Of a stretch of 64,000 bases of DNA, positions 23,201-29,200 are shown in pieces. Positions within the stretch are counted from its first letter, which is position 1. Each line of letters opens with the position of its first letter. A model generated the notes under the pieces. It saw nothing but the letters and a program-made list of their open reading frames with translations. It ran no database searches and was not told the DNA's origin. The stretch spans positions 590,860,001 to 590,924,000 of the forward strand of contig CM097882.1 of assembly GCA_044892505.1 (NCBI GenBank). Reading direction: 5' to 3'. A program made the translations under genes and the position numbers. The stretch is from Schmidtea nova (taxonomy: Eukaryota).

Positions 23201-26200
23201 TGATAAAATTTAATGTTGAGTTCTGCCGTTTTCCATATTTCCTGCATTCTTTCTTTGAATTTGGTTACGTAGTCGTCATCTTCCATATATTGCGATAATG
23301 GTGGCTGATACTCTAAATCTATGGGCATGTTGCACTCTCTTCCATACATAAGTTGAAATGGGCTTAGTTTTGTTGCTGCATGTATCGACATTCGGTATGC
23401 CATTAAACATAATTTTATGTATTCGTCCCAGTCAGTTTGGTGTCTGCTGACGTAGTTTGATAACATTCTAATCAATGTGCCGTTGAATCGCTCCGTTTGT
23501 CCATTCGTTTGCGGGTGATATGGTGAAGTTCTCAATTTTGCTATTCTGAAATAGTTTGTCACCTCGTTCAATAACTCGCTCATAAAATTAGTTCCTTGGT
23601 CTGTGAGTATTTGTTTTGGAGTTCCATATCTGCAGCATATTTCCTCCACTAGAATTTTTGCTACGGTTTTTGCTTTTTGATCTTGCATGGCAAATGCTTC
23701 CGGGAATTTCGTCAGGTAATCCGTTATTACCAGTATGTAAATGTTTCCGTTTAAGCTTTCTGGTAATGGTCCTATTACGTCCATTGCTATAGTTGTCATT
23801 GGCTCTGCTGGTATTGGCATTGGTTGTAGTGGGTTCTTCCATTTCTTCCCACTATCCTTTCTGGTTGCACAGGTTAGGCAATTTTTAATCCATTCTTTAA
23901 TATCTTCTTCCATTGTTCGCCAATAATATTTTTGTCTCATACGATTTATTGTCTTCTTCTCGGACATATGACCTCCTAATTTCCCATCATGGTACTGGAT
24001 CATTATCTCTTTCCTTCTGTTGTCCGGTAAACACATCAATCTCTTTTCTCCGTCTTGTATTAACAACCATCCTTTGTTTATTATGTAGCGATGTTGATAT
24101 TTTCCTATATGTTCCTTTAGTTCCTTATTATCCTTGAATACTTCCATATTTCGAGATGTTAGGAACTCTATGATTTGTCCTAATTCTTTGTCTTCTTGTT
24201 GATCTTTCTTTAACTCACTAAAATCTAAATCCTCCGCTATTAATACACAAATTCGTTGTACATCAGGATCGGTTAGTTCTGGAAATGTCAGTCTTGACAT
24301 ACAATCTGCATTTGCATTCGCTCGTCCTGATTTAAATTTTATGTCTGGTGAGTACTCCTGTAGCTGCATTGCCCATCGCATTAATCTACTGGAGGTTTCC
24401 TTATGTTGTCCTAACCACACAAGCGGTTGGTGATCTGTGGTTATACAGATGATGTGTCCCCATAATAAATATTTAAAGTGTTTGATTGCTAGTATAATTG
24501 CTAACGCTTCTCGCTCGGTTACTGAGTAATTTTTCTCATGCTTTTTGAATGTCCGGCTATAATATCCGATTACGCGTTCTTTTCCTTCATCGTCGTATTG
24601 TCCTAATACTGCTCCTGCTGCATATCCGCTTGCGTCTGTTGCAAGTAAGAATGGCTTCTTGAAGTCTGGGTGTACCAATATGGGTGCGGTTATCAGTTTA
24701 TCTCTTAATGTCTCGAAAGCTGTTTGTTGTTCGTCTCCCCATATGAAGGATACATCTTTCTTTACTAGTTCCTGTATAGGTTTTGCTATTCCGGCGTAAT
24801 CTTTTATAAACTTTCTATAATATCCACATAGTCCAAGAAATTCTTGTATCTGGGTTATCGTTTTTGGTACTGGACATTCCTTTACTTTGTCGATATTTCT
24901 AGGATCCGGTTCTTTTCCTTTTGCTGACACTATATGTCCTAAAAATGTTACTTTCTCTTTCGCCCAATCACACTTTGATGGCTTGAGTTTTAACTTCCAT
25001 TGTCTAAGTCTAACGAATACATCTCGAATATCCTGTATGTGTTGTTCAAACGTGCTAGAGTAGATTAATAAATCGTCGATGTAGACCATACACTGCTTTA
25101 TTCCATGGGTGACGAAATTCATGCATCTCTGAAATGATGCTGGTGCGTTTGTTAATCCAAAGGGCATCTTTCGAAATTGATATAGGTCTCTACCGATGGT
25201 AAAGGCAGTTTTCTCTTTATCTTCTTCCTTCATTTTTATTTGCCAGTATCCGCTTTTCAGATCTAGCGATGTAAAATATGCTGCTCCCTGTAATGTTAGT
25301 AGCATTTCGTTGATGTCTGGTAATGGGTAAGTATCTCGTTTTGTCACTGTATTCAATCTTCGATAATCTATGCAGAATCTCTGTGTTCCGTCTTTCTTCT
25401 TTACCATTACTACTGGAAATTGCCAGGGTGAACAACTTGGTTCGATTACTTCTGCATCCAACATTTTCTTCACTTCTGCTTCCGCTACTGCTTTCTGTGC
25501 TTCTGCTAATTTGTATGGTCTTAATGCAATTGGTGTTTCGTCGGTTAATGGTATTGTATGTAGTGTGACATCACATGTTCCTAGATCCAAATCGGATGCT
25601 GCAAATATGTCCTTATACTCTGTCAGCAGTTTTTCTAATTGCTTCTTTTGATTCTCATTTAATAATTCACTATCAATATTCCATGTTGGTTCTTTATCTT
25701 TCTCTGCTCCTGCTATTGGTAGTTCTATATCCATCATTGGGGTTAATTTACCTAATCTTTCGTTTTCGTAGATTATTTTATCCTCCTCGTCGAAATTTAC
25801 CACGTTTATTGGGATTTCTCCATTATCATTTATGTTGACTAATCCTCTTGCCATTGGCAACGCTTTTCTTTTCTCGAATCTCTTACTTGGTTCGAAAATC
25901 ATATCGCCTTGGATTGTCGGATCTATTTTTACGTAACATATTTTTTCCTTTCTTGCCGGTATTATCATTTGCTTTGAACTCGTTACCTTGGCTTCTATTG
26001 CGCATATTTGTCCGGTGCGATCCTTTAATCTCATTGTTCCGAGATCGATTACGATTTCTTTAAATAACGTTGGCATCAAATCTGTTCCGATAATGCAAGG
26101 TACGCTTAATGCTGGTATGACTGCTACGTACGTATCGATTTCTGTATTTAGGTGGCGTATTTTTACCCACCATCTCCCTGCTACTTCTACAATTTCTTTG

Positions 26201-29200
26201 CTACATGCAATTACGTGGACGTTTGTCCTTTCTATATCTCGTCTTTGCTCTTGTGGTATCCATTTGATATCGATGGCGGAAATATTTGCTCCAGTGTCGA
26301 TCATTGCTTCGATTTCTCTTCCGTTAATTTCTATTGTCGTGGTTAGTACTGGACCTGTGTTTGATGACATTACGGCGATCGTATGTGCGTCTCCTTGTGG
26401 ATCTACACTTCTACATCTTCTCATTTTATAATCTTCTGGTATCATGGGGTATACATTTGTCATTGGCATCATTTGCATTGTTGTCGTTCTTCCTCCTTGT
26501 AGTGGTTCTTGATACATGGTTGGTGGAGGTGCGTAACATTTCCATGCGTCGGTTGGATTCTTTTCGATGTATTGTGGTGCTTGGTTCTTATACACTTGTC
26601 CTCCCTTATAGTCGTCATCGTCATCATCGTCGTCACTCGAATCATTTTGGGTTTTATATCCTTTCACCCTCTCCCATAAACCTTTTCTTTCTCTCTTGAG
26701 CTGCTGTCTTGATTGTTCGTCATTCATTATCTTTTTAAATTTTCGTCCTACTTCTTCATCTGTTCCCTTCATTTTTGCTAGTATCTTTAGGAGTCTTTTT
26801 ATTCGATGGATATCTTTTGAGTGTCCGTGCAGCACCATTGTTTTCGCAAGGAATGGTAAAAACCCTACCACCATTTTCCAATTCACTTTCTTTTCTCTCT
26901 TGTATATATCGAAACACGCTAACATTTGCGTTATTATTACTCTGACGATTTGGATTATTAATATGACCCCCAGTATTCCAGCCATCATTTGTCCAAATAT
27001 CAGGAATCTTCCCCACATGGCTTTCATCATATTTTCCGTGGCTTTCTTGAAATGTGCTGGTGACAACAACAGTTCATAATTCGGTCCTTCTCGATAATCC
27101 GTTCCTCCCGTTATCGTTACGATATTTGACAGTAATGCTTCTCTTCTCGCTGGAAATAATATATTCTGCCTTGCTGCTTCTAAATCCTTTGGACTATATA
27201 TTCCGTTGTTTGAGACATCTACGTCGCTGAATTGCCTATCCTTTGACAACTGCATTAGCTCGAATTCTCTTGGTGCTATCACTTCGGATCTTCCTGGGAA
27301 CATAACCCATTTACCATCTGGTTTCTGATAAAGTGGTCCATACGCATTACTACAGTTGAATGGATTTGGTTCAAACCCTGGTGGATTGATGATTCTCGTC
27401 ACCGGTTGAACGTATCGTACTTTTCCTTTGTAATCGATTTCTAACTCGTTTGTACAGGTTCCAGGTTTCAACTGCGTTGTTGCTGCTAGCGACGCGTGGG
27501 TCTTTTCGCAAATGTATACATACATTGCTTCTCCAACCACTCTTCCGAAATGTCCTTCTCTCAGTGGTAATAATGGCATCGCGCTATCTGGATTCGTAAT
27601 CGCTACGGCCAACTTTGTCTTTAATATTTCTCTATTCAGTATACAATCATTGTTTATCAGATCGTAGTACACTTTTTGTAATGAGGCTTGTCCTCTATGG
27701 AATAGGAAATCCATTTTATTATTCACATACAGGTGTAGTTTGATATCCATTGTGTCGATTTTGGGTTTCGCATTTGGTACTTCTTGTTTTGACACATATA
27801 TTCCTGGATAATTTGTTTCGTATACCGTTGTACTACACTTAAGGGTTGCTTTCCCTTTTATGAATCTCATTCCCACATCCTGATTTGTGGTTATCAATAC
27901 TGTTGGTGTGGCTCTCATCTCTATCCGTTTTTCCCTATGATCTGGTTTCAATTGTCTTTTATTCTCCAAAGCTTCCTTGAGGTGCTTTGCTCTAGCTTTG
28001 TCGTCATCGTCTTCTTCCTGGAATGTCTTTCCTTGAATTTCGTCGAACTGTGCTCCTTGTAGCAGTTGTAATTGACATTCGTTCACCTTTGGTTTGTATA
28101 CTAATGTTGACATTCCCGTTTGACACATGCTCCTGTCGATTTTACACATGGATAACGTTTTCATTTCTCCCGTTGTTGGTTCGAAGAATGCTTCGTAGCT
28201 TTTTAGTTCGACTATATACGTATCCATCACCACTAAGTTGGTTGCGGGTACTCCGAATATCGGGTAGGTTTCTCCTTGACAATATCCTTCTCCTCCCGTA
28301 ATCCGTCCTGCTACATAGTACGTCTGTTGCATCATCATTCCTGGCTTTCCTCTTATCTTGATTTTATCCCTTGTTGTTACTTCTCCATGTTTAAACAGTG
28401 CTTCGCAGTCTTCTCCTTGTAACACGATTGGTTCTCTTTCCGTTCCTGGCATGACAATTGCTGAATAATGTCCTCTCCCGCAGTAGAATGCGAATCTCGT
28501 CTTCTGCACCTTACATTCATTTACCATTGTCTTTATGAGTTCTGCTTCTTGATACACGTGGTACCATTGTTCCTTTTTAATCTTTTGCAATTCTACTGGA
28601 GTTGCATCTTTGCATTGCTCCGTACCTCTCAATGAATACTTTTCTCCTAACTTCATTTGGTCGCAATCAAACACTTCGAACGCTGTTGCGCTATCGGTGC
28701 TAATCATCCATATCAACATCATCATTATTATAGAACTCAAATTCATTGATGACTTCGCGTTTCTTGTTCCTGCTTGTTCTTTTCCTAACTCTTCCAATAT
28801 TTTTTCGAATTTCTTTTTCATATTCTTGGCTTGTGTTTTCTTCTGGTTAGTTTTTATAAATGTTTCCCATCCGCCTTTGTTAATGATGTATGGTTCTATT
28901 TCTCTGGCTATAATTTTCGCGGTATTTTTTATGTGTCTTTCCAACGCAGTGGGTTTTGGTCGACCTCTACTCAGTGTTAGTAGGTTGTAGATGGTGTATG
29001 CAATGGCTATCACGTATTTGTTATCTGTTTCCGCTCCTTCTGTCAATTTCTTTATTAACGTAGTGGTTCCTTGCCAGTCTAAATGATTTGACTTCGTCTT
29101 TTCTTTTATGAATTCCGGTAAGATGGGGGCAATTGCGCTGTGCAATGACTTCGCCTTTTCGCTTATCTCAGTTATACGCCAGTATTTTTTTAATTCCGGA

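Follow-up and report, generated by a model that had tools for sequence, protein, structure and literature searches.

A predicted gB-like envelope inside the Gag-Env-Pol frame of a Burro-type giant retrotransposon: selection, predicted topology and an envelope exchange

An envelope gene within one long frame

We analysed a window of 64,000 nucleotides (nt) of DNA from Schmidtea nova (CM097882.1, positions 590,860,001 to 590,924,000), in which a retrotransposon carries an envelope gene (env) between Gag and the protease (PR), in frame with Pol. On the features compared (domain order, LTRs, size and frame), the element falls among the Burro-type giant Ty3/gypsy retrotransposons. Positions are window coordinates, and polyprotein amino acids (aa) are numbered from nt 32211 on the minus strand unless said otherwise. 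The features on which the argument rests are the following.

32121..34160, minus strand: Gag with three CCHC knuckles (PF00098), out of frame with the rest in the window copy only
17212..32211, minus strand: remainder of the Gag-Env-Pol polyprotein, open over 4,999 codons
28837..29289, minus strand: putative Bcl-2-like domain with a BH2-like GGW motif at its end, ~45 aa before the signal
28681..28746, minus strand: predicted internal signal; hydrophobic (h-) region aa 1160-1170; predicted cut ATA/FEV, aa 1177/1178, nt 28681/28680
26998..28680, minus strand: predicted gB/chuvirus-G-like ectodomain, aa 1178-1738, 561 aa, 14 Cys, one N-x-S/T site
26932..26988, minus strand: predicted Env transmembrane (TM) segment, aa 1742-1760; KD 2.55; summed insertion score 0.1
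26830..26886, minus strand: second hydrophobic segment, conserved; score 7.6, scored non-spanning
26440..26451, minus strand: YPMI, a YP-hydrophobic tail motif like the one with which free-standing env homologues end
26017..26346, minus strand: aspartic PR, PF00077 E 2.5e-07; DTGA at aa 1972, nt 26298
24322..25521, minus strand: reverse transcriptase (RT) and RNase H (RH), PF00078, PF17917, PF17919; YIDD at aa 2377
23212..24144, minus strand: integrase (IN), H2C2 finger and core, PF17921, PF00665
22369..22638, minus strand: ankyrin repeats, best-scoring stretch, PF12796 E 6.6e-15

The Pfam order along the frame is Monjiviricetes_fusion, protease, RT, RNase H, integrase and ankyrin. The order of Pol, PR-RT-RH-IN as judged from the Pfam positions, matches Ty3/gypsy (Metaviridae); all Pol matches fall in gypsy-type families, and no Bel/Pao Pol family was found among the Pfam matches. 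A sequence-only reading of this DNA had placed env and a TM segment upstream of a DTG protease in frame with Pol, and this arrangement was confirmed. Its statement that no stop intervenes holds from the Gag-env linker to Pol but not for Gag, which lies in another frame in the window copy. In all four natural copies compared, a single frame of 5,649-5,685 codons takes in Gag, env and PR. The Gag break is a private lesion or an assembly error, as is a stop that the second window unit has before the signal. A programmed frameshift at the Gag break was ruled out, since the frame is read through in three dispersed copies and in three other tandem units; slippery heptamers were rejected as a clue, being too frequent in the A-rich strand to inform, and the stop was rejected as a readthrough signal because none of the 18 other copies has it.

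The Pfam match of the ectodomain (PF24664, Monjiviricetes_fusion; 246 bits against a cut-off of 27, E 5.5e-73) is not a chance one. As a single sequence, the ectodomain found nothing useful in the PDB; a profile of 123 sequences reached herpes gB at E 4e-4. The AlphaFold model of the ectodomain (predicted local distance difference test, pLDDT, 88.9) has a long central helix (315-362). Against the PDB, Foldseek gave a best E of 1.5e-14 at a TM-score of ~0.4, and every row shown was gB; VIA aligned 427 residues with gB (Z 10.8, root-mean-square deviation 8.7). The best rows in BFVD were G proteins of chu-like viruses (E 2.3e-36; TM-score 0.57-0.72 in five of the top six). Sequence identity of the ectodomain is 16-20% to chu-like G and 10-14% to gB, and 13 of the 14 Cys are conserved in at least 90% of the 123 sequences. 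The class III (gB-like) fold is thus supported by the model, in agreement with the sequence-only reading, and the likeness to chuvirus G is a fair resemblance. That reading was also right in calling the ectodomain Cys-patterned; its length of ~580 aa is corrected to 561. Chuvirus/Monjiviricetes G and herpesvirus gB have the predicted class III fold and PF24664 in common with the window env, but each is encoded by a gene of its own and starts with an N-terminal signal. In the model, a furin-like REKR (aa 1426) falls within a low-confidence loop.

The in-frame placement of env, which had been thought unusual, is already in print, as is the fold class, and the layout itself will be no surprise to a specialist; the additions made here are the selection on env, the anatomy of its topology and a mapped envelope swap. 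What follows on published work refers to the parts of the cited papers that were compared. Firstly, a 2019 publication describes, for Burro/GYPSM1 of planarians, an in-frame env that sits between a Bcl-2-like domain and PR (PMC6431247); Burro/GYPSM1 has in common with the window element a size of ~30 kb, long terminal repeats (LTRs), one open reading frame (ORF) of ~5,000 aa, CCHC Gag, a BCL2-like domain, PR-RT-RH-IN, ankyrin repeats and MATH/TRAF. Unlike Burro/GYPSM1, the window element has TRAF in a separate downstream ORF, and two extra signal/FN3-like/TM units end its long ORF. The 2019 account matches Burro/GYPSM1 env to glycoproteins of arthropod and fish mononegaviruses, and ties Burro env to the Env of gypsy and to the fusion proteins of baculoviruses, retroviruses and paramyxoviruses, whereas the fold predicted in the window is gB-like; topology, selection and swap analyses are absent from the parts of it that were compared (PMC6431247). 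BURRO1 rises upon smedwi-2 RNAi (PMC8532177).

Secondly, gB-type env has been described in gypsy elements, among them GAG-ENV-POL elements from flatworms, nematodes and bryozoans (PMC13524379, Chary & Hayashi 2026). These errantiviruses, whose ENV belongs to the HSV/gB type (HSV, herpes simplex virus), share the gene order, the gB-type fold and flatworm hosts with the window element. Two of them, Smed_errantivirus_1 and _2 (ENV_HSV), are 14.8 kb long and have 45 and 215 copies (PMC13524379 supplement); the domain I-II row of the former resembles the window env by eye. In the main text of that paper the words 'polyprotein', 'in frame', 'splic' and 'burro' are absent. The same authors argue that gB-type env genes are an ancient retroelement lineage, and find env recombination to be infrequent and likely to occur within one host; the swap in the window is a mapped recent case of it. 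Thirdly, Anakin, a Bel/Pao element with a chuvirus G, carries the same glycoprotein family in an LTR element (PMC12440569, PMC13524379); unlike Anakin, the window element has gypsy-type Pol Pfam domains and env ahead of PR. In the literature searched, nothing was on point for signal-peptidase processing, Burro particles or env swaps; Grohme 2018, Sacco 2022, the figure supplements of PMC13524379 and closed-access papers may already describe the signal, the topology or recombination.

Selection on env and its exchange between subfamilies

Whether Burro is an infectious provirus was asked in 2019 (PMC6431247), and how gB-type retroelement envelopes work has been stated to be unknown (PMC13524379). 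Every fifth of 104 matches to the ankyrin region was taken, giving 20 copies, of which 18 cover env (L057 and L074 were left out of the env counts). Variants were counted against the window copy without a tree, a crude count in which the contrast is nevertheless large: among ectodomain variants common to at least two copies, 101 are synonymous and 7 non-synonymous (ratio of non-synonymous to synonymous change, pN/pS, 0.018), and in the TM region the shared variants number 28 and 1 (0.009). The corresponding ratios are 0.004 for RT-RH, 0.016 for IN, 0.039 for PR and 0.10 for the N-terminal region. Env is thus under strong purifying selection, about as strong as that on integrase. Twelve of the 18 copies are free of stops and frameshifts across the 10 kb examined. 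An earlier count, which gave 0-1 amino-acid differences, was set aside because its copies had been chosen by env similarity and were thus biased.

Exact 20-mers place the element at 119-172 sites (env 119 and 172, RT 151, N-terminal region 153), and open frames of 5,641-5,736 codons are present in 23 of the 78 best env matches in the genome (G000). Fifteen env 20-mer matches absent from the RT and N-terminal lists belong to a sister subfamily, B. Subfamily B also accounts for a 2-3 fold depth over env in four contig sets from one study; this had been considered as an env-only excess, which the 20-mer counts do not show. At the nucleotide level the window copy, of lineage A, is ~70% identical to B in the N-terminal region and 79% in RT, and 90-94% in the ectodomain. 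Silent divergence between A and B, measured with two B copies, is 0.70-0.92 outside env and 0.27-0.37 in aa 1178-1800. Breakpoints were mapped with 630 three-way informative sites: the window copy is A-type at 158 of 167 sites upstream, B-type at 285 of 301 within aa 1178-1800, and again A-type at 157 of 162 downstream. The switch from A to B lies between nt 28663 and 28657 (aa 1183-1185) and the switch back between 26845 and 26752 (aa 1789-1820), which delimits one further feature.

26845..28657, minus strand: recombinant block from subfamily B, outer limits 28663 and 26752

Because the informative sites switch from A to B to A, and silent divergence drops inside env, we conclude that lineage A took the mature Env from lineage B by recombination. 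The breakpoints fall just past the predicted signal cut and just past the TM region. Env and backbone trees (FastTree, midpoint root, no formal test) disagree in line with a swap. Fourteen further stretches, picked by hand, comprise seven with an A backbone and an older env, three with the window env, two distant relatives and two without env in the stretch. In the seven A-backbone stretches env is only 73-75% identical, and all seven have stops or frame breaks in aa 1126-1960; all 18 ankyrin-picked copies that cover env have the new one. This suggests that the recombinant expanded, both samples being biased.

Env has thus been kept almost unchanged by selection and has been swapped in whole, so the element likely needs it to spread. 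That env is selected about as hard as integrase, and that a recombinant with a foreign env now dominates the copies most like the window, is indirect evidence of this need. The idea that env is a relic, open only as Pol lies downstream, with the low A-B divergence due to constraint at the RNA level, is very improbable and largely refuted: an in-frame passenger must indeed stay stop-free, but non-synonymous changes have been purged, no ORF longer than 105 aa overlaps the ectodomain, and the A-backbone copies with an env 73-75% identical show that env DNA is free to diverge.

Predicted topology and mode of expression

Signal and TM segments were called from hydrophobicity scales and homologue alignment, and insertion scores were computed on a position-free scale. 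A profile-free search of 1.84 billion proteins returned 917 relatives at E <=0.001, of which the best 150 were examined; the internal-signal set (n=16) consists of 15 relatives extending far upstream and the window sequence. In 16 of these 16 polyprotein sequences an h-region lies 19-25 aa ahead of the first Cys. Among control blocks, an h-region occurs in none of 39 from the N-terminal region and none of 23 from the ectodomain, and in 4 of 44 from PR-IN. Counted from the first Met, the h-region of the window lies at ~aa 1114-1124, in agreement with the signal peptide near aa 1119 of the sequence-only reading. Small residues occupy Cys-6 and Cys-8 alike in the internal set and in 72 free-standing homologues with N-terminal signals, and the two sets agree in the spacing to the first Cys. 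A loose -1/-3 test (four offsets) is passed by 14 of the 16 sequences with an internal signal and by 61 of the 72 free-standing ones. The cut was therefore placed at ATA/FEV, and homology supports signal peptidase as the probable agent; of the processing claimed earlier, the mature start is the part that agrees with the free-standing homologues, and the cleavage itself is a prediction. A Met within 15 aa before the h-region occurs in only 6 of 16 sequences, and Met1156 of the window is Leu in subfamily B, so an alternative start for env is not indicated.

The TM segment scores -2.1 to 3.2, and the second segment 3.7-8.1 in the 12 sequences scored, one of them incomplete. Since the latter is scored non-spanning, the chain after the TM segment should stay cytosolic. 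The earlier proposal that PR-RT-IN sits on a cytosolic Env tail is supported by this segment scoring, the sidedness itself being predicted. Of 13 polyproteins, 12 have a YP between TM and PR, and 46 of 88 free-standing homologues end in a YP-hydrophobic motif, against 10.5 in shuffles; the sharing of this motif with free-standing env ends argues that a whole Env with its tail is embedded in the polyprotein. The motif may have a late-domain or sorting role. A DT/SG follows the TM segment in 11 of 11 homologues checked.

Based on these data, we consider it probable that the env of this Burro-type element is made by threading one polyprotein through the membrane of the endoplasmic reticulum (ER), in the manner of flaviviruses, and that Env acts in budding and in entry. 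On this proposal, synthesis of Gag and the Bcl-2-like domain would take place in the cytosol. The internal signal would then open translocation and be cut by signal peptidase at ATA/FEV, its stub remaining as a tail anchor of the Bcl-2-like domain; Bcl-2 proteins carry a tail anchor at the place where the signal sits relative to this domain. The TM segment would stop transfer, leaving the tail, PR, RT-RH, IN and the ankyrins in the cytosol, where the element protease would free itself and the enzymes, and Env would be left with a normal tail ending near the YP motif. Two later signal/TM pairs would thread two FN3-like membrane proteins. Finally, capsids would bud through Env-bearing membrane, and Env would fuse them into new cells, for which, on this proposal, env is selected.

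The conservation of signal and tail motif in distant relatives is supporting evidence for an ER-threaded polyprotein. The hepatitis C virus (HCV) core-E1 junction is a precedent for a capsid protein that ends in an envelope signal, and Flaviviridae more widely offer the analogy of an internal envelope signal cut by signal peptidase behind a capsid protein, with cytosolic enzymes downstream (PMC5402940, in the parts compared). Unlike the window element, Flaviviridae have unrelated enzymes and no reverse transcription, so that this is an analogy and not membership. The flavivirus fusogen is of class II.

Several points weigh against the threading proposal. Subfamily B has Thr at -1, and two of the 16 internal sequences do not pass the -1/-3 test even in its loose form. 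In full copies ~1,650 cytosolic residues precede the signal, far more than precede the HCV signal. The predicted fusion-loop tips are rather polar, with a few aromatic residues (CGRGHY, ITGGEGYC). Selection proves that env is needed, not that it fuses cells, and the swap breakpoints need not show selection for a module, as they fall in conserved stretches, the places where a template is most easily switched. Protease sites were guessed afterwards from repeated I-x-x-hydrophobic words at domain borders, which makes their count circular. Cleavage, topology, fusion and particles are all predictions. Finally, a single frame would yield Gag, Env and Pol at 1:1:1, a poor ratio for building capsids unless splicing or decay intervenes.

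This unusual ratio is one reason to consider that splicing or another RNA-level step gives Gag-Pol without Env, or Gag alone, so that most Pol would never be on an Env tail. Cer1, a single-ORF gypsy element, splices for a further product (PMC10309623, in the part compared). On the other hand, the frame from env to PR is kept in the 11 of 11 homologues checked, a stop behind env and a conserved Met ahead of the signal are both absent, and we find this alternative rather unlikely.

There is likewise a small but real chance that Env acts inside the cell, in budding into ER or vesicles or in blocking superinfection, and not in the infection of other cells. The polar loop tips and the single N-glycosylation site would suit such a role, and selection cannot separate the two. 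However, the model has a complete, post-fusion-like gB fold with conserved Cys, and a swap followed by expansion would suit a function in entry or escape.

Thirdly, the segment upstream of the ectodomain may be an uncleaved signal-anchor, giving an Env held by two TM segments, whose release on the cytosolic side would fall to the element protease or to an intramembrane one. The Thr at -1 in subfamily B and the very long chain before the signal would both be accommodated, and gB-type ectodomains between two TM segments are reported in some elements (PMC13524379, in the parts compared), which allows such an anchor and counts against cleavage. We nevertheless regard it as quite unlikely: the h-region, with a score of 3.1 for its best 19-mer and -1.7 for its best 12-mer, is a short one, and the residues and spacing before the first Cys are as in free-standing homologues with N-terminal signals.

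The ER-threading proposal can be taken further, to a version that we hold to be doubtful. Burro would be a live enveloped endogenous virus whose 5,500-aa chain crosses the ER membrane six times; its env signal would also serve as tail anchor for a captured Bcl-2, Pol would enter particles on the Env tail, and envelope exchange between sister subfamilies would drive copy bursts. The threading proposal makes sharp predictions on the mature N-terminus of Env, the sidedness of Pol and the tail motif, for a mode of expression of which the literature searched holds no account.

The Bcl-2-like identity of the domain upstream of the signal is moderately supported by modelling. The model has a pLDDT of 59; the Foldseek rows shown are all of the Bcl-2 family (best E 3.6e-3), VIA gives Z up to 7.0, and the homologue P0008 matches PF00452 at E 0.001, below the cut-off. 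By itself, the region gave no match in Pfam, PDB sequences, the homologue search or Atlas.

Other features of the element, its array and its relatives

The remaining features of the element are listed below.

36384..39421, minus strand: 5' LTR, 3.0 kb, TG...CA, common to the next tandem unit
3228..6265, minus strand: 3' LTR, which doubles as the 5' LTR of the next unit
36360..36383, minus strand: 6-nt spacer and primer-binding site, putatively tRNA-Pro-like; seen behind the LTR at the matching window site near 3228, and likewise in three dispersed copies
35535..35924, minus strand: small upstream ORF with a C3HC4 RING finger, PF13920 E 2.1e-11
18913..20667, minus strand: second membrane unit, predicted from hydrophobicity, with a signal-like segment followed by FN3-like repeats and a TM; fn3 E 0.012, below cut-off
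17401..18672, minus strand: third predicted membrane unit; a paralogue of the second, to which it is 30% identical over 369 aa (E 4e-39)
15261..16640, minus strand: TRAF-like ORF (RING, TRAF zinc fingers, MATH), complete and separate, PF22486 E 1.4e-20, PF02176
14086-15174, minus strand: 362-aa coiled-coil ORF
36877-37548, minus strand: 223-aa ORF within the LTR
7092..13447, plus strand: nested LTR-type element, 354-bp direct repeats 97% identical, found in each tandem unit seen

About two units of a head-to-tail array fall within the window; the array comprises at least four units of 33.15 kb each, 99.9% identical, and neighbours have LTRs in common. Followed from C1:590830084 of the genome onward, each unit contains the same nested element, and a gap of 500 N lies at 45142-45641; the array may be a real tandem amplification or, in part, an assembly artefact. 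All three dispersed copies have 3.1-kb LTRs that are 99.84-99.97% identical, TG...CA ends and 4-bp target duplications, together with a single frame of 5,685 codons containing the CCHC knuckles, the signal and DTG. One of them spans 30,011 bp, within the size of Burro (~30 kb or more with LTRs). A tRNA gene was sought within the window and none was found. The nested element (also at 40248-47104) is opposite in orientation to its host element and gave weak protease and integrase-finger matches. Short tandem repeats of 29 bp and 32 bp, at 34700-35100 and 1557-1942 in the 5' untranslated region, vary in number among copies.

The accessory ORFs and the Bcl-2-like domain suggest, from their sequences, a control of apoptosis or immune signalling; BIR and dUTPase-like domains gave no Pfam match at E 0.1 in the 13 stretches scanned. 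The second membrane unit has an Atlas score of 0.85, treated as a lead only, and the paired signal/FN3-like/TM units are possible receptor-binding or decoy proteins. These FN3-like units (17401-20667) are the fastest-changing part of the polyprotein, with a pN/pS of ~0.3. The word INML occurs three times at region borders (window aa 137 and 3105, Gag aa 567) as a candidate protease site, and INML-like words flank PR and separate RNase H from integrase.

Hydrophobic segments after integrase are also found in the relatives P0006, P0009, P0014 and P0152 and in a second family of the same genome (L041-L056). This family has a frame of 3,427-3,442 codons with four CCHC knuckles, a Bcl-2-like GGW motif, a signal, an env with 36% identity, PR-RT-IN and a single additional signal/TM pair. 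P0152, P0005 and P0006 carry extra signal/TM pairs and several protease-like domains within one frame, with as many as seven weak matches in P0152. P0010, P0015 and P0017 are smaller Gag-Env-PR polyproteins with a signal at aa 470-550, so the proposed threaded layout would need no giant accessory load. P0009, a Gag-Env-Pol relative, has as its source label a hypothetical protein of a bacterial metagenome bin and is probably misassigned animal DNA.

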